A stretch of DNA of 32,000 nucleotides from Candidatus Scalindua sp. (lineage in GTDB: Bacteria > Planctomycetota > Brocadiia > Brocadiales > Scalinduaceae), in the NCBI GenBank assembly GCA_031316235.1, contig JALDRA010000001.1:2970001-3002000 (forward strand), written 5' to 3'. The notes beneath the pieces were generated by a model. The model searched no databases, had not been told where the DNA came from, and worked only from the letters and a program-made list of their open reading frames with translations. The position numbers and the translations under genes are program-made. Position 1 is the first letter of the stretch, and each line of letters starts with the position of its first letter. Of this stretch, positions 19,262 through 30,974 are shown in pieces.

Positions 19262-19568
19262 ATCGGCTCGCTTTGAAAAAGGGTTTCTTCAAATCTTTGA
19301 GGACTCACTTGATTGTAAAGGGATTTCCATTTTACCAGTAAACAAATCAATCTGTTACCATTTATATGTGGAAGATCTGTGCAGGAAGCACGACAACGAT
19401 AATACCATATGCAGATGAATAATGCAAATTTCAGGTATATTTTTACCATTGATGATAACTCAAACCTCTGTATAATACAGGGCAGGGCTACTGTAGCGGA
19501 TTCAACTGGTTTTGTGAGACTACAGGGGGCGTTTAGTGGAAAACACCTTAAAAGAAATGGAGACCATC

Positions 19569-19850
19569 ATGAAAAAAGCATCGGCACGTCATATCCTGGT
19601 TGATTCAAAGGAGAAATGTGAAGAGATAAAAACCCAGATTGAAAGCGGTGGCGACTTTGCAGATTTAGCAAATGAGCAGTCTCAATGTCCTTCTGGAAAA
19701 CAGGGGGGAGATTTGGGAGAATTCTCACCCGGTCAAATGGTACCGGAATTTGACCAGGTAGTATTCAAAGAGGAAGTTAACAAAGTGCATGGCCCCGTTC
19801 AAACACAATTTGGGTACCATCTTATTGAGATTACAAGTAGAAGTGAGTGA
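19569..19850 (+). CDS. ppiC: Parvulin-type peptidyl-prolyl cis-trans isomerase (PpiC/Par10-like)
   Basis: ~93 aa from MKKASARHILV. CPSGKQGGDLGEFSPGQMVPEFDQVVF...TQFGYHLIEI is near-collinear with E. coli PpiC as I recall it. The ORF track's start at 19536 adds 11 residues, and that extension is probably not real. Confidence 0.85.
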   Translation: MKKASARHILVDSKEKCEEIKTQIESGGDFADLANEQSQCPSGKQGGDLGEFSPGQMVPEFDQVVFKEEVNKVHGPVQTQFGYHLIEITSRSE

Positions 19851-19888
19851 GGTGTTATTCCGTTTCTGTCCGTATGAGCAACTATTCC

Positions 19889-20033
19889 GATACTATGCTA
19901 AAACCGATTTTGTTTCCGGTTTTACCGGAAACAAAATCTTGATGAAGGTATCCCCGGACAGAAAACGCCGAGGACTTTACTCGCTTAATTTTATCTCGGA
20001 TTTTATCCGAAATCCAGTATGAGATGAGTATAT
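19889..20033 (-). repeat. Repeat family A, copy A-1 (full length, inverted orientation, carries a 27-nt internal insertion)
   Basis: Aligns over its whole length with 21579-21694 and 30857-30974. It contains a perfect 15-bp hairpin (19906-19920 / 19924-19938). Confidence 0.85.
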
Positions 20034-20133
20034 CAATGGGGAAGGCACAGATAGCGGGCAGCATGTTCCGCAGACTTTAGGAGAAAGCACAGTTTCTAAG
20101 AAAAAAGAAAATAGTCGTCGAACAAAGAGACAT

Positions 20134-20433
20134 TTGTTGCCGTCACTCTATCCGTGCGAGGTTAAGATCAAGGGTAAGAATTTTAACGCACTCGTGAATA
20201 CGGTTATAATAAATGTGTCCGGTGGCGGGGCAGGTTTGGAGATAATTGGGGTAAGATACCAATCTGATATTAGGGTTGACGAAGAAATCTTACTTGAAAT
20301 TGACACCGGAGCATCAGAGAGGATGAAAATCAGGGCCAGAATAAAGTGGGCTGAGTTGTCTGGATTGAAAAATTCAATGGGAGTTGAGTTCACCGAGCAG
20401 AGAGACATAGAAAAGATTCTACACGTTGTTTAG
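20134..20433 (+). CDS. PilZ-domain protein (possibly 5'-truncated, or using a non-canonical start)
   Basis: The NVSGGG motif (D/NxSxxG) and a beta-rich ~100-aa size fit PilZ. The matching RxxxR motif (RRTKR, nt 20116-20130) is in frame but upstream of the first ATG/GTG/TTG codon. Confidence 0.6.
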   Translation: MLPSLYPCEVKIKGKNFNALVNTVIINVSGGGAGLEIIGVRYQSDIRVDEEILLEIDTGASERMKIRARIKWAELSGLKNSMGVEFTEQRDIEKILHVV

Positions 20434-20557
20434 TGGTTGAACCGAAACTGCCTCTCTGCTGCGCTGCCGTAAAAGTTCCGTAATCCTCAAGTACATTATT
20501 ACATTCCAGTTCAGAAATCAGCGCTCCTTTTGTCGGTCCGGTTTTGGTTCAACCACT
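20432..20557 (+). repeat. Repeat family B, copy B1 (126 nt, inverted termini AGTGGTTGAACCGAAAC / GTTTTGGTTCAACCACT)
   Basis: A 17-bp terminal inverted repeat with 1 mismatch. The internal core is shared with B2/B3. It begins inside the TAG stop codon of the PilZ ORF. Confidence 0.8.
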
Positions 20558-20559
20558 CT

Positions 20560-20618
20560 ATATACTCATCTCATGCTGGATTTCGGATAAAATCCAAAAA
20601 ATAAAGGAGCGAGTATGC
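20560..20618 (+). repeat. Repeat family A, copy A-2 (first hairpin module only)
   Basis: ATATACTCATCTCATGCTGGATTTCGGATAAAATCC...GAGCGAGTATGC matches the 5' half of A-3/A-4. It abuts the right end of B1. Confidence 0.75.
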
Positions 20619-20785
20619 CATTTGTTATTGAAAATTGAGTTGATGCCAGGCCGTATTTCATAAGTCCCTACAGGGTTTCAATACATTCCTGAGGGGTAGG
20701 TAACATTTAAGTTCTTGAATCTAGAAAAATTTGTTATCATGAAGAGATTGAGGTAACGTAAATTTTTCAATTATGGAGATATATC

Positions 20786-20986
20786 ATGTGTCAGATGAGC
20801 GTTATGGTGGATAAGGAGGGGCAGGAGGAGTTAGTAATGGAAAGCGTTACGCAGCTGGAAGTGGTTGAGGAGGGGATCAAGGTGAGTACGTTTTTCGAAG
20901 AACCGAAGCTTGTTTCAGGGGTTGCGGTGAAGACGATTGATTTTCTTGCTGGTAAGTTGATACTTCAAGCAAAAGAGAAAGTCTAG
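20786..20986 (+). CDS. cooT: CooT-family nickel-binding protein (CODH maturation accessory protein-like)
   Basis: 66 aa beginning MC (Cys2 is the Ni ligand in characterised CooT), with a beta-rich pattern ...LEVVEEGIKVSTFFEE...VKTIDFLAGKLILQ resembling CooT. A GGAG RBS is present. Confidence 0.65.
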   Translation: MCQMSVMVDKEGQEELVMESVTQLEVVEEGIKVSTFFEEPKLVSGVAVKTIDFLAGKLILQAKEKV

Positions 20987-21098
20987 ACTCTAAACCTGCC
21001 TTTCTTGCTTTTTTAAGAAGAAAAACAATACCGCTAAGGAAAACAGGAAATTCAGGTAAAGAACTAAGAGTAGCGGTAATTAATTTAATGGAGAAGTT

Positions 21099-21344
21099 AT
21101 GTCAGAACAAAATGTAACAAAAAAACTTCAGGTGATGCTACCTCACTGGATTGAACACAATAACAACCATATAGCTGAGTTCAAAAAGTGGGAGGGTGAA
21201 GTTCGAGCAGAGTCCGGACGGGAACTCGCCAAACTGCTGGAGAAGGCCATTCGTGACATGGAGGAGGCGGGAAAGTCACTCTCCGAAGCACTTGAGAAGG
21301 TTGGCGGTCCATTGAAAGGCGAGAGTGGGCACCATCATCACTAG
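21099..21344 (+). CDS. cooJ: CooJ-like histidine-rich nickel metallochaperone
   Basis: 81 aa, helical. It carries the motif HWIEHNNNH (nt 21144-21170), an exact H(W/F)x2Hx3H, plus a C-terminal HHHH tail (21330-21341). A GGAGAAG RBS is present. Confidence 0.6.
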   Translation: MSEQNVTKKLQVMLPHWIEHNNNHIAEFKKWEGEVRAESGRELAKLLEKAIRDMEEAGKSLSEALEKVGGPLKGESGHHHH

Positions 21345-21346
21345 CT

Positions 21347-21477
21347 AGTGGTTGAACTGACATACCCACCTACTATACTGTGTTGCGGTAAAAATCTCGT
21401 AATCCTCACGGCCTTGAGTACGCTCAGGATCCGAAATTATTACGCATCTTGTTTCTGGCCAATTCTGGTTCAACCAC
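21347..21477 (+). repeat. Repeat family B, copy B2 (131 nt)
   Basis: Termini are AGTGGTTGAAC / GGTTCAACCAC. A 47-nt internal core is ~85% identical to B3. It starts 3 nt after the stop of the CooJ-like ORF. Confidence 0.8.
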
Positions 21478-21578
21478 AGGGTTTCCGTTCAAGCACCAGT
21501 TAGTTGACAAAACCAACCACTCGTATTCGGATTTTTAAAGAATAAGCAATTACACAGAATTTCGTTGAAAAATATGGT

Positions 21579-21694
21579 GTATTTACTCATCTCATACTGG
21601 ATTTCGGATAAAATCCGAGATAAAATTGAGCGAGTATACCTTCACCAAGATTTGGTTTCCGGTAAAACCGAAAACCAAATCGGTTTTAGTATAT
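21579..21694 (+). repeat. Repeat family A, copy A-3 (full length, forward orientation)
   Basis: Two hairpin modules: GTAT..ACTC...GAGTATAC, and GATTTGGTTTCCGGT-AAA-ACCGAAAACCAAATC followed by GGTTTT. Termini are GTAT(TT)ACT / AGTATAT. Confidence 0.85.
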
Positions 21695-21807
21695 CCTATC
21701 TGTAACAATAAATCTGGGTATGAAATATTAGATAAAAGTTTAAAGACCAACTTCATAATTGATTGACCTTATTTTGAATAAAATAGAAAAACAGGGGCAT
21801 TAACACT

Positions 21808-22017
21808 ATGAGTGACGGGATTAAAAGCGGTAAAGAGGTTATTGCCGAATTCTTCGCAGATATTATGAATATAGAAGGGGTAGACAAAAAGACTGTTGAG
21901 AAGCTGACATCCTTGTACAGTGAAGGAAAACTGACTGATACTAATATCCAGAATGTAATGGAGAGACTACTTCAAGAAGAACTGGAAACAATCGAGGAAG
22001 AAGATGGTAAAGATTAA
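21808..22017 (+). CDS. Hypothetical small acidic protein (69 aa), translationally coupled to the downstream ATPase
   Basis: 18 D/E vs 8 K/R, predicted helical. Its last 14 nt overlap the ATG (22004) of the next ORF, and the GAGGAAG RBS for that ORF lies within its coding sequence. Confidence 0.55.
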   Translation: MSDGIKSGKEVIAEFFADIMNIEGVDKKTVEKLTSLYSEGKLTDTNIQNVMERLLQEELETIEEEDGKD

Positions 22018-24430
22018 AACAATCAACATCAGTGGAATCAGGGGTATTAAAAACCCTTTGTCGCTAAACCTGAAGAGCGGGTCGATTATGATTTTTGGCG
22101 AGAATGGGTCGGGAAAAAGCTCTCTGACTGATGCAATTGAATGGTACTATTCAGATAGTGTAAAGCATTTGGTCAGTGAAGAAACAGGATTAACCAAAGG
22201 AAGAGGATCGTTGCGTAATCTATTCATTCCAGATAGTGAAGACGCCTTCATCAGTATTCAGTGTTCCAACAAAAAATTGAATGCAACAAAAACTATTGAC
22301 AGTTCATTGAAGGCTTCCGCCTCCAATACAACAGAAGATTTCAATGATTATTTGATTGCAACTCAATCTGAAAACCTAATTCTACGCTACAGCGATTTGG
22401 TAGAGTTCATTATTGCCTCCAAGACTGATAAGCTCAAGAAACTCCAAAACATTATTGGTTTTTCTGCTGTTGCTGATGTCCGTGATCTTCTCAAAAAGTC
22501 TGCTGAAAAAATCGAGCGCACCATCAAATCGGCCAACTATGATAATCAAAAAAACTCTCAACAATCTGTTGTACTTGAAAATCTCGGGCAAAATGCCTAC
22601 ACTGATGACCAACTTTTTGCAGGAGTAAATCAGCTAATAAAACCGTTGCAGATTAAAAAAGACATAAGATTGCATAAAGATATCCAGGATGTTCTAAATG
22701 CGATTGAAACGAAAGAAGATATAACTCTTTTAGCGCAGGTCAGTTTCTATAAAAAGGTTGGAGAAAACTTAACGGAAATTATCGGGAATATTGACAGTAT
22801 ACACTCAAGCTATAAAGCTTATTACACAATCTACACCGAACTGCAAAAAGACCCTGGAAATATTCAGAAACTACAACTCCTCTCTTTATTGAAAGAAGGA
22901 CAGAGCATTTTGAAAAATGATGTTGTGAAGGATGATTACTGTCCACTCTGCCAACAAGTAAAGAGCAAAATTGAATTGATTAGAGAATTAAATGAAAGGA
23001 TTAAAGAATTAGAGGAACTAGAAGAAGAGAAGAGCAAGTTAGAAGAATGGAGACAGAAAGTAACAGATATTCTGCGAGCCAACATCAATATTATTGAAGG
23101 ACTACTCAAAGAGAAATGTTTCAAAGAGGAGCCGTATGCCACACTTCTTGAGAATATTCAGCAAGTTAAAACCTTCCTGAATGTATTTTCAGATGAACTA
23201 AAAAAGGAATTAATAGCTCAAGACCTAATTCAGGAGCTGAGCAGAATACGGATTGATAAGAAAGTATTATCTGGAATTGCCAGGCAAGTGAAAGGCATGG
23301 CAAAAACGCTCACGGAAAAGAAGAAATTCAATATAAAATTTCAAATCTACACCAAGCTATTTCATGCAGTCACCGCTTACAATCAATATAAAAGCATTAA
23401 AAGAAAACAAGAAATATTAACTAAACAACAAGTGACATTCCAGGTGCTTTTTGCCGATTTTATTAAAAGACAGGAAAAAGCTTTAAATGTGTTTCTGAAG
23501 ATGTTTTCAACAAACATTGATGAATATTACACTACCATGAACCCCAATGAGGGAATAAAGGATATTAAGCTTGTGCCTATCAAGAACAGGGACGATGACA
23601 TGGTAGGAATAACAATTGAGAGTTTCTTCTTTAGTGAGACCAAAACGCCACCAAGCGCTTATTTGAGTGAAAGCCATATCAATTATCTTGGCCTTTCGTT
23701 CTTTTTAGCTTCTGTAAAAGCATTCAATAAGCAGAATAAGTTTTTTGTTCTTGACGATGTGATTTCAAGTTTCGACAGGCCACACAGATCAAGGTTTGCA
23801 AAATTGCTGACTGATAAGTTCGGCGACTACCAGATTCTGTTACTTACACACGAGAAAGAATTCTCTGAATTAGTGTCCAGTGTTGTTAAGAGCAAAGGAT
23901 GGCTAATTCAAGACTTTAAATGGTCACGTGAGAATGGGGTAGGAGTTGAAAACGCTACAACTGACATTAAAGACCGTATTCTCAGGAAATTTGAGAATAA
24001 AGACATAGACGGTCTTGGTAATGATATCAGAGTTTATACTGAAAAGGTAATGAAAGAAATCGCATACAACATAGAGGCCAGAGTGGCTTTTAAGTATAAC
24101 GGAATCAATGAAAAGAGAATGGCCTCTGAACTATTAGATGCTGTTCATAGACAGATTTCAAAGAAGGGAAATGGTTTAAAGGATAAGGCCAACATCCAGA
24201 AACTCAAGGGAATGTCAATGTTCCTTGCCAATATCACGTCTCATGATAATGAGTTTTCTGAAAGCATTGGGGACTTAGCAGCAATATGGGAAGATGTTGA
24301 GAATACTGTTCAGACCTTTTACTGCGATGAGAAAAAATGTAAGAAGTTTATTTCAATCAAGTATTTTGATAATGTGGAAAGCAAAATCCGGTGTGGGTGT
24401 GGTAAGTTGACCTACGATTGGAAGAAGTAA
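22004..24430 (+). CDS. Rad50/SbcC-like ABC ATPase with coiled-coil zinc hook and a C-terminal extension (RloC/PrrC-like, AAA_13-type architecture)
   Basis: 808 aa. Walker A GENGSGKSS (22097-22123). A ~510-aa K/E-rich helical insert carries CPLC (22940-22951) near its midpoint. A signature-like LSESH, Walker B FFVLDD and H-loop LLLTHE follow. The ~190-aa C-terminal region ends in a four-Cys cluster (CDEKKC...CGC). Confidence 0.8.
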   Translation: MVKIKTINISGIRGIKNPLSLNLKSGSIMIFGENGSGKSSLTDAIEWYYSDSVKHLVSEETGLTKGRGSLRNLFIPDSEDAFISIQCSNKKLNATKTIDSSLKASASNTTEDFNDYLIATQSENLILRYSDLVEFIIASKTDKLKKLQNIIGFSAVADVRDLLKKSAEKIERTIKSANYDNQKNSQQSVVLENLGQNAYTDDQLFAGVNQLIKPLQIKKDIRLHKDIQDVLNAIETKEDITLLAQVSFYKKVGENLTEIIGNIDSIHSSYKAYYTIYTELQKDPGNIQKLQLLSLLKEGQSILKNDVVKDDYCPLCQQVKSKIELIRELNERIKELEELEEEKSKLEEWRQKVTDILRANINIIEGLLKEKCFKEEPYATLLENIQQVKTFLNVFSDELKKELIAQDLIQELSRIRIDKKVLSGIARQVKGMAKTLTEKKKFNIKFQIYTKLFHAVTAYNQYKSIKRKQEILTKQQVTFQVLFADFIKRQEKALNVFLKMFSTNIDEYYTTMNPNEGIKDIKLVPIKNRDDDMVGITIESFFFSETKTPPSAYLSESHINYLGLSFFLASVKAFNKQNKFFVLDDVISSFDRPHRSRFAKLLTDKFGDYQILLLTHEKEFSELVSSVVKSKGWLIQDFKWSRENGVGVENATTDIKDRILRKFENKDIDGLGNDIRVYTEKVMKEIAYNIEARVAFKYNGINEKRMASELLDAVHRQISKKGNGLKDKANIQKLKGMSMFLANITSHDNEFSESIGDLAAIWEDVENTVQTFYCDEKKCKKFISIKYFDNVESKIRCGCGKLTYDWKK

Positions 24431-24685
24431 TGGGTAAGCGCAAATCAGTATACTCATATGGTGTTTGCTTACTTTGTTCCATGAATTTTTAAGAATGAGA
24501 AAGAGAAGAAACAGATGCAACGGACTTGCTGGAACGACTTTCTTCCGGAAGTTATCTAGTTTAAACTTCGAAGCCTGCTTCGATACATTAACATCGAATA
24601 CGCGAAAACATCTATTACCGGCTGCGCATATAACCATTACAATCCGATGCCATTCGAATCAAGTCGTTTGCAGGAAAAAATTGAA

Positions 24686-24946
24686 GCAGGCCCTCTTGAT
24701 ATGCCTGAAGAGATTGAAGGGGTCTCTCTTGAGACTCTATTTTTAGAAGAGCTTAGCACCGTTAATGAATAGTATAACATGTGATATAATATTTACTATT
24801 GGAGAACATCGAACAATAGTGAAGTTGATTTTGTTGTATATGGAAAAAAGAGATTAAAGGCTTTTGAAATTAAACGATCACGAAAATTTAAGAGAAAAGA
24901 CTGAAACGGGCTTAAATTATTGTTGAAAGATTATCCCATAGCATAA
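24686..24946 (+). pseudogene. Decayed 3' remnant of a DUF4143-type AAA ATPase gene
   Basis: A single frame reads ...GVSLETLFLEELSTVNE*YNM*YNIYYWRTSNNSEVDFVVYGKKRLKAFEIKRSRKFKRKD*NGLKLLLKDYPIA*. The YYWRT..(E)VDFVV...iEiK pattern is the C-terminal signature of DUF4143 ATPases. There are three in-frame stops and no N-terminal P-loop part. Confidence 0.5.
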
Positions 24947-25010
24947 ATGTTGTTGAACCGGAACAAAAAGTAATACACTTCTGATGTGTTCTGGCTCGGT
25001 CAGGTTGAGG
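24947..25010 (+). repeat. Repeat family B, degenerate/internally deleted copy B4
   Basis: The left end ATGTTGTTGAACCGGAAC matches the B left terminus at ~14/17. The right part TGTGTTCTGGCT...GGTTGAGG resembles the B2 tail TGTTTCTGGCC...GGTTCAACC. It starts 1 nt after the pseudogene stop and ends 6 nt before the nfo ATG. Confidence 0.35.
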
Positions 25011-25015
25011 AGAAA

Positions 25016-25861
25016 ATGATGAAAAGGATTGGAGCCCATGTTAGTTCAGGGGGTGGTGTCGAGAATGCCCCTTTGAATGCAAAAGAGATAGGGGCCAGGG
25101 CGTTTGCCCTTTTTACGAAAAATCAGAGACAGTGGAAAGCGAAACCTCTCACGAATGAAAATATCGAGAAGTTCAGACAAAATTGTGAGGATGCCGGCTT
25201 TCTTCCGGAACAGATCCTCCCTCATGACAGTTACTTGATAAACCTTGGGCATCCGGAAAAAGAGGGGTTAGAGAAATCAAGGGATTCCTTTATTGAGGAG
25301 ATGCGGCGTTGTGAACAGCTGGGGCTCTTAATGCTTAATTTTCATCCTGGCAGCCATCTTAAGAAGATTTCAGTGGATGCATGTTTAAAACGGATTGCTG
25401 AGTCCATTAACATTGCGCTGGACATGACCAGGGGAGTTACGGCCGTGATTGAAAATACAGCGGGACAGGGTACCAACATTGGGTTTAAATTTGAACATCT
25501 GGCCGCTATTATCGATGAAGTTGAAGACAAAAAGAGAGTCGGAGTCTGCCTTGATACATGCCATACTTTTGCTGCCGGTTACGATATTCGAACAATGGAT
25601 ACTTTTAAGGCCACAATGGATGAATTTGAAAGAGTTGTTGGCCTGAAATATCTAAGGGGCATGCACCTCAATGACTCCAAGTCTGATCTGGGGAGCCACG
25701 TAGACCGTCATCACAGCATCGGAAAGGGGAAGCTGGGAGTCGACCCTTTTCGGTTTATCATGAATGATAGCCGCTTTGAAGAGATTCCCATGGTATTGGA
25801 GACAATTGATTCTACCATCTGGGCTGAGGAGATAAAGCTGCTTTATAGCCTCATTGATTGA
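25016..25861 (+). CDS. nfo: Endonuclease IV (AP endonuclease)
   Basis: Motifs ENTAGQG, CLDTCH and HLNDSK. A GAGGAG RBS upstream of the ATG at 25016 makes that start more likely than 24986 in the ORF track. Confidence 0.93.
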
Positions 25862-26080
25862 ACGAAAACTACCCATCTACTGCTTTAGGGTTCAGAGAAC
25901 CCTCGCGGTACTAATTCCGGAATCCTCACGTACTTGAGTACGCACCGGTTCCGAAATGATTACGCGCCTTGTATACTCATTTCATAATGGTTTTCGGATA
26001 AAATCCGAGAAAAAACGGAGCGAGTATACCTTCACCAAGATTTGGTTTTAGTATACCTGGGCAGTTTTGGTTCAACCGAT
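25853..26080 (+). repeat. Repeat family B, copy B3, interrupted by an A-family insertion
   Basis: The left end ATTGATTGAACGAAAAC contains the nfo TGA stop. The right end is GTTTTGGTTCAACCGAT. Removing 25971-26056 restores collinearity with B2. Confidence 0.75.
25971..26056 (+). mobile_element. Repeat family A, copy A-4, nested inside B3 (second hairpin deleted)
   Basis: GTATACTCATTTCATAATGGTTTTCGGATAAAATCCGAG...GAGCGAGTATACCTTCACCAAGATTTGGTTTTAGTATAC. It has precise GTATAC ends and no flanking duplication visible. Confidence 0.85.
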
Positions 26081-26212
26081 TCTTAAAGTAATCGTTGATG
26101 GGGGTGTCGGAGAAATGCGTATTGAGGATTACAGAATGTTTCAAAGGAATCTAAAGAAATTTCAAATTCCCGTTTTTACAGGAATGACAAACTTTACTTT
26201 TTATATGAAAAC

Positions 26213-26256
26213 AAAAAAGCCACCGTTCAATCGAATAAACAGATCGATCGGTGGCC
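26213..26256 (-). terminator. Probable intrinsic terminator downstream of the formate dehydrogenase gene
   Basis: On the - strand, GCCACCG...CGGTGGC (26219-26225 / 26249-26255), with inner ATCGA/TCGAT pairing, is followed by TTTTTT (26213-26218). It begins ~60 nt after the fdhA stop. Confidence 0.55.
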
Positions 26257-26313
26257 TCTAAAAGTGAACAGCGTATTTTCCAATCCCATCTCAGGCATTG
26301 AAGAATGTGGTAA

Positions 26314-29019
26314 CTATTTGCATCCGTTACCGTTTAATTTCTCAACCTTGATTGCACATGACTTAAGCTCAGGGATCTTACATATTGGATCGAATGCATC
26401 ATTAGTAAGTAAGTTTGTCAATGCATCTCTGTGATGGAATGCAAGAAATGTTATACCCGGTTGCACTCTATCGGTTAGATGTACCCTTATCTCCATTTCT
26501 CCTCTCCTTGAGCTGGCAAGTACCTTTTCACTGTCAGTTATGTTAAATCGTTTGGCATCAAACGGATTCAACTCCAGCACTTCTTCCGGCCACTTTTCAT
26601 ATATTTTGCTTGATCTTCTCGTCATGGAACCGTTGTTATAATGCTGTCTGCGACGACCGGTCGTAAGGATCAGCGGATACGTATCATCAGGTACTTCCGC
26701 GGAAGCGATGTGCTCGTTGAAGTTGAACTTTGCCTTGCCGCTTGCTGTTATGAATTTTTCTGTGTACATGATTTCCGTACCAGGGTGATCAATATCGGGG
26801 CATGGCCACTGGATACCGTTCTTTCCAAGTTTCTTGTGGGTTACCCCGGCAAACATAGGAGCAACGCTTGCCAGTTCATCCCAAATTTCTGATGCAGAAG
26901 TGTAATCCATCTTTACACCGAGGGCATTTGCTACGAGACAAATTGTCTCCCAATCCGCTTTCCCGCATAATGGTTCGATTGCCTTCCGGATGAGCTGTAT
27001 CCTTCGTTCACCATTCGTGAAGGTTCCGTCCTTTTCTGCATGGCTTGATCCAGGAAGCACAACGTGGGCAAACTCAGTGGTTTCAGTTGGTAAAATGTCC
27101 TGTACTACAAGAAATTCTAATTTTCTCAGACCGCTTTTCACAAAATTGACATTGGCATTTGTCATGGCGGGATCTTCGCCGAAGATGTAGTAACCCTTCA
27201 GTTTGCCTTCATTCATTGCGATATCCATTTCGGTACATGTCAAGCCTACCTTGTCATCCAGCTTTACTCCCCACGCCTTCTCAAATTTTGCCTGAGCAGC
27301 TTTGTCTCCCACCTTCTGGTAACCCACAAATTTATCGGGTAACGCACCCATATCACACGCTCCCTGAACGTTGTTCTGACCCCGGGTAGGATTGATACCG
27401 ACACTTGCTCTTCCAAGATGACCGGTTACGGTGGCAAGATTTCCTAAGGCCATTACATTATAGGTACCGGTTGTATGCTCGGTCATACCGAGACTGTAGA
27501 TGATCATCGCCTTATCGGTTGTTGCATACATTCTGGCAGCATCGATGATCCGGTCTTTAGCAACTCCCGTTATACCTGAAACATATTCTGGCGTATATTT
27601 CTCAACACCTTTCTTCAACTCTTCAAAACCCTCGGTACGGTTCCTGATAAATTCTGAATCTTCGAGACCTTCTTTGATAATTACGTGTATGATTCCGTTT
27701 AAGAGCGCGATATTTGTACCGGGTATCAGATTCAACCATACATCTGCTATCTCTGCAAGCTGAGTCCTTCTCGGGTCTCCTACTATCAGTTTTGTATCTT
27801 TTTTCAAAGCATCCTTTATTTTCAGTCCGAGAATAGGGTGAGCCTCATAGGGGTTTGCCCCTATGACGAACAATAGTTCAGCATCACGGATCTGACTGAA
27901 TGAATTAGTTGCAGCGCCGCCGCCATAGCATGCGGCGAGGCCTGAGACGCTCGCGCTGTGACATACCCTGGCACAGTTATCAATGTTGTTTGTACCCATC
28001 ATCCGGCCGAGCTTCTGAAATATATAGTTTTCTTCATTTGTACACCGTGATGAAGAGAGAAATCCCAAGCTGTCAGGCCCATGTTTTTCCTTAATTTCTT
28101 TAAATCTTGTAGCGATGAGGTTGATCGCCTCATCCCAACTGGCCTCTTCCAGCTTTCCGTTCTTCCTTATCAGCGGTGTGGTTATCCTGTCCTTATGATG
28201 GATATGCTCATAACCAAATCTCCCCTTTACACAAAGACTGCCTCTATCGTTAACCGGTGCGTCAAAGCACGGAGAGATAGAGACGACCTTATCATCTTTT
28301 ACATTAAGAAAATAATTGCATCCGGTTCCGCAATAGGTACAGGTAGTTCTGGTCTTCTCAAATTCCCAGACCCTCCCTTTCCCTTTGGTAGATAATTCAG
28401 TGAGTGCGCCAACCGGACAGGCCTCGATGCATTGTCCACATAGCTCACAGTCACCCAGTTTGGAGATGTTGGTTTTATTTGGGGTTCCTAATGCGGTAAA
28501 TCCTCCCTCTTTAAATCCAAGCGCATAGGATCCCTGTAACTCGGCACAGGTCCTGGCGCATCTTGCGCACATGATACACTTGTCACGGTCCCACTCTATC
28601 ACTCCGTTATTCGGGTACTCGGAGAACTTACGTATGGTCTGTTGACTCCATTCAGCGTGTACATCATACTTATAGGCATAGTTTTGGAGTTTGCACATTC
28701 CGGTTCTTTCGCAAGTCATACAGTCGTTAGGGTGGTTGGCAAGAATAAGCCTCAGGTTGTTTTTCCTGAGTTCGGCAATGTTATCGCTTTCCGTAACAAT
28801 ATCCATTCCCTCCCATACCGGTGTATTACAAGCTGTTACGGGACCAAGGTTTCCATCGACCTCAACAACACACATCCTGCATTGACCGAACGGACTTAAA
28901 AGTTCCCAATGACACAAAGTGGGAACAGGTATCCTGTTCTTTTTTGTTACCTGTATAATGGTTTCACCATCATTTGCCTCATATACTTTGTTGTTAATCT
29001 GTAACGAGATTTTTTTCAT
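26314..29019 (-). CDS. fdhA: Formate dehydrogenase alpha subunit, NAD-dependent (FdsA/FdhA) type with NuoG-like N-terminal Fe-S domains; cysteine (non-Sec) active site
   Basis: 901 aa. It has an N-terminal 2Fe-2S domain (CRMCVVEV), ferredoxin-type CxxCxxCxxxCP motifs, a Mo-bisPGD Fe4S4 domain (CTYCGTGC) and the active-site ARVCHSASV (Cys353-His354). An AGGAGA RBS is present. Confidence 0.9.
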   Translation of the reverse strand: MKKISLQINNKVYEANDGETIIQVTKKNRIPVPTLCHWELLSPFGQCRMCVVEVDGNLGPVTACNTPVWEGMDIVTESDNIAELRKNNLRLILANHPNDCMTCERTGMCKLQNYAYKYDVHAEWSQQTIRKFSEYPNNGVIEWDRDKCIMCARCARTCAELQGSYALGFKEGGFTALGTPNKTNISKLGDCELCGQCIEACPVGALTELSTKGKGRVWEFEKTRTTCTYCGTGCNYFLNVKDDKVVSISPCFDAPVNDRGSLCVKGRFGYEHIHHKDRITTPLIRKNGKLEEASWDEAINLIATRFKEIKEKHGPDSLGFLSSSRCTNEENYIFQKLGRMMGTNNIDNCARVCHSASVSGLAACYGGGAATNSFSQIRDAELLFVIGANPYEAHPILGLKIKDALKKDTKLIVGDPRRTQLAEIADVWLNLIPGTNIALLNGIIHVIIKEGLEDSEFIRNRTEGFEELKKGVEKYTPEYVSGITGVAKDRIIDAARMYATTDKAMIIYSLGMTEHTTGTYNVMALGNLATVTGHLGRASVGINPTRGQNNVQGACDMGALPDKFVGYQKVGDKAAQAKFEKAWGVKLDDKVGLTCTEMDIAMNEGKLKGYYIFGEDPAMTNANVNFVKSGLRKLEFLVVQDILPTETTEFAHVVLPGSSHAEKDGTFTNGERRIQLIRKAIEPLCGKADWETICLVANALGVKMDYTSASEIWDELASVAPMFAGVTHKKLGKNGIQWPCPDIDHPGTEIMYTEKFITASGKAKFNFNEHIASAEVPDDTYPLILTTGRRRQHYNNGSMTRRSSKIYEKWPEEVLELNPFDAKRFNITDSEKVLASSRRGEMEIRVHLTDRVQPGITFLAFHHRDALTNLLTNDAFDPICKIPELKSCAIKVEKLNGNGCK

Positions 29020-29120
29020 ATTTTCTCCTGAATTTATTCGTCTGCCATATGTAAAGAGTGAAAAATTCCATTATATTGAAATGGATTGTGCAACACAAAA
29101 AATAAGGTCTTCTATATAAA

Positions 29121-29161
29121 AGGCTAAGGCCGTAATCCCTAGGGCATTACAGCCTTAGCCT
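29121..29161 (-). terminator. Long near-perfect hairpin between the ferredoxin gene and fdhA (terminator/attenuator or processing/stabilising structure)
   Basis: AGGCTAAGGC-CGTAATCCCTAGGGCATTAC-(A)GCCTTAGCCT. On the - strand the stem is followed by TTTTATATA. Confidence 0.45.
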
Positions 29162-29254
29162 GCTTTAAATGTTTGGTCGTAGAAGCTTGTTCCTGTACTG
29201 ATTCATTATCCTGTACTTTGACAAGCAAGCAGATACACCTATCTGAAAAACCGC

Positions 29255-29713
29255 TTATCCAACTTCAGCGACAGCTGAAATTTTGGTCTCGATATAATTG
29301 AGAGCTGACGTCTTGCACGCCTCAACGCATGCTTTGTCGTCATATCCCTTGCAATCGTCACAATTAATCGCAACATTCATCTCTGTCTCTTTTGTGATCG
29401 CCTTAAAAGGGCAGGCATCGATACACGCCCAGCAACCGGTACATTTTTCCTGATCAATTATGACGTTGCCATCCTCAAATTTTGTAATTGCACCGTATTC
29501 ACATGACTGCCTGCATTTCGGCTTGGCACAATTCTGGCAATAGGTGGCATAAGGCTTGTCTTTTCTATAGCTTATCTTGATCCGGGAAAGTGGTACCGGT
29601 TTTTCTAAAGGTGAAAGATATATGTTCTTAGCTTTTGAATGCCGAACTGCACATTCGATCATGCACCGCTTGCAGGTAACACAGTTCTTGCTCGTAAATT
29701 TTTTATTTATCAT
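29255..29713 (-). CDS. 4Fe-4S multi-cluster ferredoxin-domain protein
   Basis: 152 aa with several Cys clusters (CVTCKRCMIEC, CQNCAKPKC, CTGCWACIDACP, CDDC...CVEAC), upstream of fdhA on the same strand. Confidence 0.85.
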   Translation of the reverse strand: MINKKFTSKNCVTCKRCMIECAVRHSKAKNIYLSPLEKPVPLSRIKISYRKDKPYATYCQNCAKPKCRQSCEYGAITKFEDGNVIIDQEKCTGCWACIDACPFKAITKETEMNVAINCDDCKGYDDKACVEACKTSALNYIETKISAVAEVG

Positions 29714-29830
29714 CTTTTAAATACCTCTACAGTATAGTGGCTCTTTTTAGTTAAGAACTCCTTTATCGTACGAAAATTCAGTTTACCAGATTATTATAAT
29801 TTTTCAATTGTTTTTTCGATTCCTGTTTTT

Positions 29831-29867
29831 TTCGACGTATGTTCTTTTCGACGTATGTTCTTTTCGA
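29831..29867. repeat. Tandem duplication, 16-nt unit TTCGACGTATGTTCTT x2.3
   Basis: Two perfect adjacent copies (29831-29846, 29847-29862) plus a partial third (TTCGA), in the trpF-ferredoxin intergenic region. Confidence 0.7.
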
Positions 29868-29908
29868 AGCGCGATTTTTTTCTGAATACATTTTTACTTT
29901 CAGCAGGA

Positions 29909-30517
29909 TTATCCCCTGACAGCATCAATAAATTTTCTGACCAGCTGCCTGTCTTTTTTCCTAGGCCGTATCTCCACACCTGATGATACGTCGACTCCGT
30001 AGGGATTTGCAATACGTATTGCCTGCGAGACATTCAGGTGTGTCAGTCCTCCTGCAATTATTATGGGGAGTGAGGTCTCTGTTTTACCTGCAATCCTCCA
30101 GTCAAAGGTGGTTCCTGTTCCTCCCATCTGGTTTTCTGCATATCCGTCCAGCAATAAGGCATTTGCCTCATAGCCTTGTATCTGGGGAATGTCCTCCGCA
30201 TTTTTTATTCGAAACGCCTTAATGATCTTAAACTGTTTCAGACTATCTAAAAAACCGGGTTGTTCATTGCCGTGAAGCTGTATAGTGTTGATTCTGCAGT
30301 AGTTACAGATATCTTCAATATTCTTGGCACTTTCATTGACAAACAGCCCTACAAGGGTGACAAATGGCGGCAGCTTTTGTACAATATCTTTAACTTTTTC
30401 TTTACGTACCTGTCTCTTGCTCCCGGCAAACACAAATCCGATAGCGTCCGTTCCGTAATCAACGGCTATTTTTGCATCTTCAAAATTTGTTATACCACAA
30501 ATCTTTATCCTTGTCAT
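29909..30517 (-). CDS. trpF: N-(5'-phosphoribosyl)anthranilate isomerase
   Basis: 202 aa. The N-terminus MTRIKICGIT, GFVF, LHG and IAGGL motifs are typical of TrpF. Confidence 0.9.
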   Translation of the reverse strand: MTRIKICGITNFEDAKIAVDYGTDAIGFVFAGSKRQVRKEKVKDIVQKLPPFVTLVGLFVNESAKNIEDICNYCRINTIQLHGNEQPGFLDSLKQFKIIKAFRIKNAEDIPQIQGYEANALLLDGYAENQMGGTGTTFDWRIAGKTETSLPIIIAGGLTHLNVSQAIRIANPYGVDVSSGVEIRPRKKDRQLVRKFIDAVRG

Positions 30518-30856
30518 TTCTTATGCTTCCCTCATTTACAATCCTCAATCTCAGAAGCCGACAAGGTTCTTGACTGGTTCTGTTCAATCGGAAAATCTGA
30601 ATTTCACGCAAGTTCATGCCCTGAAATTCCAAAAAAATTCTGCAGGGGACACAATAAAAGTTTACCGTTAACTCTTTTTATCATGATCATGATACCGTAA
30701 GAAATAATCTAATTCTATAGAGAAATCAATTAATAGTTTGGCAAATTAAATTGAAATCATATTAATAGTACAGTGCAGACATATCAGAATTGAGAGGTGA
30801 ATGGTAAAGAATCTCCATATCACCGTGCATTTAATGCTTAACGATTTTGTCTGCTG

Positions 30857-30974
30857 CGTATATATACTAAAACCGATTTGGTTTTCGGCTTTACCGGAAA
30901 CCAAATCTTGGTGAAGGTATACTCGCTCAATTTTATTTCGGATTTTATCCGAAAACCATTTCGAAATGAGTATA
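30857..30974 (-). repeat. Repeat family A, copy A-5 (full length, inverted orientation)
   Basis: Its reverse complement aligns end to end with A-3 (GTATACTCATTTCG...GGTTTTAGTATATATAC). The hairpin is at 30874-30906. Confidence 0.85.

Follow-up and report, generated by a model that had tools for sequence, protein, structure and literature searches.

A short, hairpin-rich sequence recurs five times in the 32,000-nt stretch analysed here (contig JALDRA010000001.1 of Candidatus Scalindua sp.; hereafter the window), so that one may ask whether the repeat serves as an RNA or terminator or spreads as mobile DNA. A reading made from the letters alone (the sequence-only reading) had allowed for both, proposing either a hairpin-ended, non-autonomous mobile element of the IS200/IS605-derived PATE-like or REP/RAYT-like kind, or a structured multi-copy small RNA or terminator module. 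We conclude with high confidence that the repeat, named family A, is a miniature transposable element with inverted repeats (a MITE) and a TA target-site duplication, that is, non-coding mobile DNA and not RNA. It is assigned to this class because it is short and non-coding, has terminal inverted repeats, duplicates TA and occurs as many dispersed copies. The suggestion of a non-autonomous mobile element was thus correct in kind, as polymorphism between orthologous sites and pairs of empty and filled paralogous sites demonstrate.

Insertion of family A at TA

Species-representative genomes (one per species) were scanned with the 22-base core pattern TTTCGGATAAAATCC-N13-GCGAGTA, which matches all five window copies and no other site in the window, where shuffled sequences lead one to expect none. 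Family A was found in at least 120 stretches. A search with nhmmer, a route to copy number that the sequence-only reading had pointed out, was seeded with two copies and returned 198 family-A hits in the window and 0.93 Mb of loci (cited below by L numbers), from which the removal of duplicates left 126 distinct full-length copies.

An insertion is recorded downstream of the endonuclease IV gene nfo. The window between 24.7 and 29.2 kb is orthologous to L051 (RBC_AMX3) and L070 (SCAELEC01), and the orthologous stretches are 78–87% identical, so that the window species differs from the sampled ones. All three species carry a repeat of another family, family B, just downstream of nfo. RBC_AMX3 retains an empty site there, ...CGCGCCTTG-TA-TCTGGGCAG (CCTTG-TA-TCTGGG), whereas the site is filled in the window and in SCAELEC01, ...CGCGCCTTG-TA[TACTC...TTTTAGTA]TA-YCTGGGCAG, with the TA doubled. 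This difference between orthologous empty and filled sites indicates insertion with duplication of a TA target. The inserted window copy, A-4 (25972-26055, plus strand, 84 nt), sits at a TA within the family-B copy B-3 (25862-26075, plus strand), and the duplicated TAs occupy 25972-25973 and 26054-26055.

Other insertions can be recognized within genomes. When the left flank, one TA and the right flank of each copy were joined to rebuild the site before insertion, gapless paralogous matches spanning the junction were obtained for 10 copies at 8 independent sites, with identities as high as 100% in a 55-nt match and 96% in an 82-nt match. Empty sites, whether orthologous or paralogous, hold a single TA. 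The central CCTTG-TA-YCTGG of B-3 is a recurrent target of family A, and the flanks of the 126 copies are otherwise mutually unrelated. The preferences that these flanks do share are mirror-symmetric (−1 A/T, −2 not C and −3 A/T on one side; +1 T/A, +2 not G and +3 A/T on the other), which fits a symmetric target cut on both strands. Copies are also biased toward intergenic DNA, with 12 of 129 overlapping crude open reading frames (ORFs) vs. a crude coding fraction of 73%. Taken together, these data show that family A integrates at TA in AT-rich, mostly intergenic DNA, and that the TA is duplicated in the process.

SCAELEC01 contains three pairs of identical family-A copies, the members of each pair being at different loci, and such identity at different loci points to recent movement. 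Nesting was common as well, with A within B (including A-4), A within D, and D within A, D being one of the sister families described below. The activity of family A has been recent and has spanned lineages, and the decay of its copies is neutral.

Ends, modules and copy number

Both ends of family A are sharp (TATACT...AGTATA). No end base is kept in fewer than 120 of the 126 copies, TA is found at both ends in at least 122 of them, and the information content is about zero directly outside. The sequence-only reading had placed GTATAC at the start, middle and end of the consensus; the conserved termini are TATAC...GTATA, the outer G and C of GTATAC not being conserved, and the middle GTATAC is confined to one subfamily, with GTATAA or a 27-nt GC-rich hairpin at that place in the others. 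Most copies measure 112–140 nt, and variants with added hairpin inserts reach 173 nt, far too short to encode a transposase; the ORFs predicted over copies are short frames in intergenic gaps between Pfam-supported genes.

The terminal inverted repeat consists of imperfect 26-nt arms, which are 77% complementary in A-5 according to the repeat search. Each end starts with TATACT, continues with a variable stretch and then reaches a conserved TGGTTTTCGG, the repeat as a whole being written TA-TACTnAnnnCnnnnTGGTTTTCGG. This TGGTTTTCGG lies 16 nt in from each end; there is one copy of it near the left end, and near the right end there are two that form a palindrome, an arrangement that would produce the hairpins of the two modules. 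Between them, the middle of the element is TATACCTTCACC or TATAACTGCAACC, depending on the subfamily. The 27-nt GC-rich hairpin is present in about half of all copies and is a subfamily feature rather than an insertion private to A-1, and the loop of module 2 comes with or without a GC-rich hairpin of about 30 nt, again by subfamily. Different species have these subfamilies in common, in differing proportions.

GC-rich hairpins of 27–35 nt occupy precisely the AAA loops of module 1 or 2 in L008, L010, L039, L044, L084, L040, L112 and other loci, examples being CCTGCCTGTGCG...CGCAGACAGG and CCCGCCCGG...CGGACGGG. We considered that they might be independent REP-like elements and rejected this possibility, since family-A contexts account for essentially all occurrences of the CCTGCCTGTGCG type and of the 27-nt middle hairpin in this sample; the CCCGCCCGG type, searched with a loose pattern, also matched outside family A. 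Two 29-nt remnants, TATACTCATCTCATAATGGTTTTAGTATA (L081 6119-6147 and L104 1139-1167), represent family-A copies shrunk by a deletion of the A-4 kind, here between the two GGTTTT repeats.

All five window copies reported earlier are present at the places given for them, according to alignment, the core pattern and a repeat search, which groups them into direct and inverted families, and their boundaries were set anew by comparison with the 126 related copies. A-1 (19894-20032, minus strand, 139 nt) is a full-length member of the subfamily with the 27-nt GC-rich hairpin between modules 1 and 2, and is flanked by a PPIase gene (19536-19850) and a PilZ gene (20134-20433). A-3 (21582-21693, plus strand, 112 nt) is also full length, with its left terminus mutated from TATAC to TTTAC, as is A-5 (30863-30974, minus strand, 112 nt), which is intergenic and lies upstream of trpF (29909-30517, minus strand). 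Only these three copies have the module 2 hairpin. In A-4 it has been deleted between GGTTT repeats, and A-2 (20561-20617, plus strand, 57 nt) is module 1 alone, both as previously described and as seen in the alignment. A-2 has 13-nt inverted termini of its own, TATACTCATCTCA / GGAGCGAGTATG, and starts 4 nt downstream of the family-B copy B-1.

Nearly all of the listed stretches derive from metagenome-assembled genomes (MAGs) of Candidatus Scalindua or Scalinduaceae (SCAELEC01, RBC_AMX3 and CBDCUS01); among those listed, one contig comes from an "uncultured Planctomycetota" bin and one from a Ca. Anammoxibacter bin. Three genomes gave at least 87, 81 and 23 hits, respectively, in the sampled 0.93 Mb, which was chosen for its MITE content and is a fraction of each genome. 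In these marine anammox bacteria, a genome carries dozens of family-A copies at the least. A full-length copy (L085 4040-4153) was found on a contig binned as Candidatus Anammoxibacter, which belongs to a different family of Brocadiales, and reflects either horizontal spread or a binning error.

Hairpins, known relatives and the transposase

The hairpins might instead be maintained by selection at the RNA level, as a structured multi-copy small RNA or an intrinsic-terminator module. Both are very stable (z = −5 to −8), module 2 is followed by GGTTTT in the forward orientation, and A-1 carries a double change from G-C to T-A that the sequence-only reading took as a compensatory substitution at stem position 6 and as a sign that structure is conserved. 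However, this double change occurs in A-1 only among 121 copies, and three other copies have an uncompensated change on the 5' side, so that the covarying pair is a one-off. Across 46 distinct short copies, in which 91.6% of cells pair in the two-hairpin structure, the covariation score (0.065) is indistinguishable from that of shuffled alignments (mean 0.066), and 4 pairs are altered on both sides vs. 3.2 expected; the search pattern fixed columns 21–35 and 50–56, which makes helix 2 uninformative for covariation, and only 13 copies escape this bias. In module 2 of 122 distinct copies, one-sided, stem-breaking changes far outnumber double changes, and most copies fail to pair at two positions of the upper stem. 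The two strands hardly differ in how well they fold, as would be true of any palindromic DNA, and orientation relative to flanking genes is unbiased (53 co-oriented and 42 anti-oriented on the 3' side, 58 and 47 on the 5' side). At the gathering score, Rfam matched nothing in the window except 23S and 5S rRNA, and at E ≤ 1 over 19800-21800 it gave chance-level hits only, in agreement with the earlier remark that the element was not recognised as any named RNA family. A terminator role was rejected as well, as a consensus terminator scan calls no copy, the tail has only four T and there is no orientation bias. A TA duplication and empty sites are, moreover, foreign to an RNA gene. We consider it very improbable that family A is such an RNA or terminator module. 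A secondary RNA role is conceivable by analogy with other elements, since RNase III cleaves transcripts that contain certain MITEs, e.g., Correia, at the inverted repeats, and nearby expression can change (PMC10969869).

The mobile elements that had been named, IS200/IS605-derived PATEs and REP/BIME, would be moved as single-stranded DNA by a Y1 HUH transposase (TnpA or RAYT). They share with family A a short length, richness in hairpins, an intergenic location and a high copy number; subterminal hairpins are found at both ends of family A, and its modules 1 and 2 look like direct repeats of each other. By contrast, PATEs and REP/RAYT elements have no terminal inverted repeat, cause no target duplication and insert beside a fixed short motif, PATEs on the 3' side of one of 4–5 nt, and REP/BIME are imperfect palindromes of 20–40 nt linked to a RAYT gene. 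The family-A unit, with its 112–140 nt, terminal inverted repeats and doubled TA, contradicts an assignment to these types, and so do its flanks, which are mirror-symmetric instead of presenting a fixed 4–5-nt target on one side, and variable on the left past the TA. The check for a Y1 transposase was also unfavorable, in that the multi-copy ORFs of the loci included no conspicuous Y1-type or RAYT-like gene (inspected by eye, with no profile search). We consider movement of this kind very improbable as well.

As a MITE, family A most resembles the Correia and RUP elements. The Correia elements of Neisseria (CREE/nemis) have terminal inverted repeats of about 26 bp that start with TA, and duplicate a TA target, as does family A. 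They are likewise non-coding intergenic repeats of about 100–155 bp in many copies (PMC2229807, PMC10969869), include subfamilies with internal insertions or deletions, and are not known to have a cognate transposase. Family A differs in its unrelated sequence, its host phylum, Planctomycetota (Brocadiia), its imperfect inverted repeat and its two-module build. Correia itself is documented to carry promoters and an IHF site and to undergo RNase III processing. Bacterial MITEs in general are typically shorter than 200 bp and AT-rich, with terminal inverted repeats, 5'-TA-3' ends and target-site duplications (PMC2229807). The RUP element of pneumococcus is 107 bp long, intergenic and present in about 100 copies, inserts at TA, is attributed to IS630-Spn1, and often lies within other repeats or insertion sequences (PMC2229807). 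Pneumococcal repeats are described as clustering and nesting (PMC2229807; PMC10969869 citing PMC3049150), and the local clusters of family A and its nesting (A in B, D in A) fit this picture. RUP differs in that its inverted repeats match those of the autonomous IS630-Spn1, whereas no such partner was found for family A in the loci and 8 metagenome contigs.

Duplication of TA is the signature of the IS630/Tc1-mariner superfamily. Together with the precedent of RUP and IS630-Spn1, it suggests that a transposase of this type probably moves family A, and IS630-family insertion sequences have been reported in other anammox genomes (PMC7814187). In the proposed mechanism, the outer bases of family A would be the cleavage end and TGGTTTTCGG a putative transposase-binding site, the hairpins would stem from a second, inverted copy of this motif at each end, and modules 1 and 2 look like adjoining half-elements. 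The enzyme, a DDE transposase of the IS630/Tc1-mariner type whose gene would lie elsewhere, would act in trans by cut-and-paste, with a 2-nt staggered cut at TA. Inserted copies would then decay neutrally, through stem-breaking point changes and deletions such as those in A-4 and A-2, and effects on adjacent genes, if any, would be secondary.

Several points weigh against this interpretation. The transposase family is deduced solely from the TA duplication and the inverted-repeat architecture, and the inverted repeat is imperfect, with 18 of 26 positions matching. Both loops read AAA on the same strand, in the manner of a direct repeat, which lends an IS200/IS605-derived element some initial plausibility. 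The loci were picked by an exact core pattern, so that the diversity of copies within the core is under-sampled. Furthermore, neither the 0.93 Mb of loci nor the 8 metagenome contigs contained an autonomous element or an IS630-like transposase with family-A ends. Orphan left or right ends in the loci all proved to belong to copies that were truncated or had another element inserted in them. Clustering of multi-copy ORFs of at least 150 aa in the loci yielded an IS1182/IS5-like and an rve-type transposase (by eye), neither of which is flanked by family-A ends, and a regular expression for the IS630/Tc1 catalytic motif (around SPDLNPIE) had no match in the 0.93 Mb around about 200 copies. Inverted pairs of TGGTTTTCGG spaced 0.6–3 kb apart in the loci were limited to a family-D copy with a group II intron, and a metagenome scan for the end pattern that excluded family A returned the 8 contigs, all of which hold further MITE variants.

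These negative results leave some room for a TA-duplicating transposase outside IS630/Tc1-mariner, either of an IS5-family subgroup with 2–4-bp duplications or of an undescribed family. Neither the IS630 catalytic motif nor an IS630-like multi-copy ORF was seen around the sampled copies, and the end TACTC could not be tied to a named insertion sequence. However, the DNA sampled is the MITE-selected part of each genome, IS630-family elements do exist in other anammox bacteria, as cited above, and strict TA duplication with an AT-rich, symmetric target is a hallmark of IS630/Tc1-mariner elements (RUP: PMC2229807). We therefore regard a transposase of another family as possible but rather unlikely. 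It also appears improbable that the A, D and mini-palindrome families with TATACYCAT...TGGTTTTCGG ends are moved by a non-IS630-like transposase, or that many copies have been co-opted, as in Correia, as regulatory modules acting at the RNA level or by DNA binding (e.g., as double-stranded RNA substrates of RNase III or 3'-end stabilisers).

Sister families, family B and gene context

The terminal repeat of family A, in near-perfect form, also bounds other small elements with different interiors in the same genomes. Family D is 182 nt long (L043 6545-6726; L045 1037-1218 and 5114-5295), and a mini-element of 57 nt (L098 5038-5094) is a perfect palindrome that consists solely of a pair of terminal repeats around a loop. 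The same terminal repeat is borne by module 1 variants whose loop contains a GC-rich hairpin. Shared ends combined with differing interiors imply that the ends are the conserved functional part and that the interiors are interchangeable, which is the pattern of MITEs.

Larger insertions were observed within some copies. L056 (389-2605) shows three-level nesting, in which a family-D copy (429-2506) interrupts one of family A and itself holds a 415-aa ORF on the minus strand (580-1827), resembling by eye a group II intron reverse transcriptase/maturase. In L064 and L109, both from RBC_AMX3, family-A copies are broken within the 27-nt GC-rich hairpin by an insertion of about 1.7 kb, which encodes a 283-aa ORF that looks by eye like an IS110-type transposase.

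Full-text searches of the literature brought up no publication on MITEs in anammox bacteria, Scalindua included, and a MITE survey of 183,232 prokaryotic genomes does not mention Scalindua or anammox taxa in its main text. Family A seems to be undescribed, though it is an ordinary kind of selfish element, and the small group of families to which it belongs lies within the well-known MITE kind and reveals no new mechanism. Candidatus Scalindua, uncultured marine anammox bacteria whose genomes are mostly known from fragmented MAGs, thereby gains a defined high-copy MITE family along with sister families that have the same ends. Such repeats break assemblies, mark recent genome rearrangement and can change the expression of neighbouring genes, and the presence or absence of copies can be used as a strain or species marker. 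The main value of the assignment is that it keeps these hairpins from being annotated as small RNAs or terminators.

Family B, the second repeat family, occurs in the window at 20434-20556, 21349-21507 and 25862-26075, and gave 102 nhmmer hits in the loci. It is palindromic, about 135–160 nt long, and ends in TAGTG(G/T)TTGAAC...GTTCA(G/A)ACACTA. Many copies have an identical 6-nt TAnnTA on both sides (e.g., TATTTA, TAAATA or TATCTA), which suggests that family B is a separate MITE with a 6-bp duplication. Family-B copies begin right at stop codons, and in all three species compared the family-B repeat includes the endonuclease IV gene's TGA stop codon (25859-25861).

The five family-A copies of the window all lie between ordinary genes, their neighbours being those for PPIase, PilZ, CooT, an SMC-like ATPase, endonuclease IV, a formate-dehydrogenase-like molybdopterin enzyme and a ferredoxin, together with trpF. 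Rfam places the 3' part of a 23S rRNA gene and a 5S rRNA gene at the start of the window, and a search of the window for tRNA and tmRNA genes found none. Its first 19 kb contain no family-A copy, as the sequence-only reading had stated, and this part seems, from the ORF list, to be more tightly filled with rRNA genes and long ORFs. An 81-aa ORF at 21099-21344, closely downstream of the CooT nickel-chaperone-like gene at 20786-20986, ends in GHHHH, has no Pfam match and may encode a small metal-binding protein.

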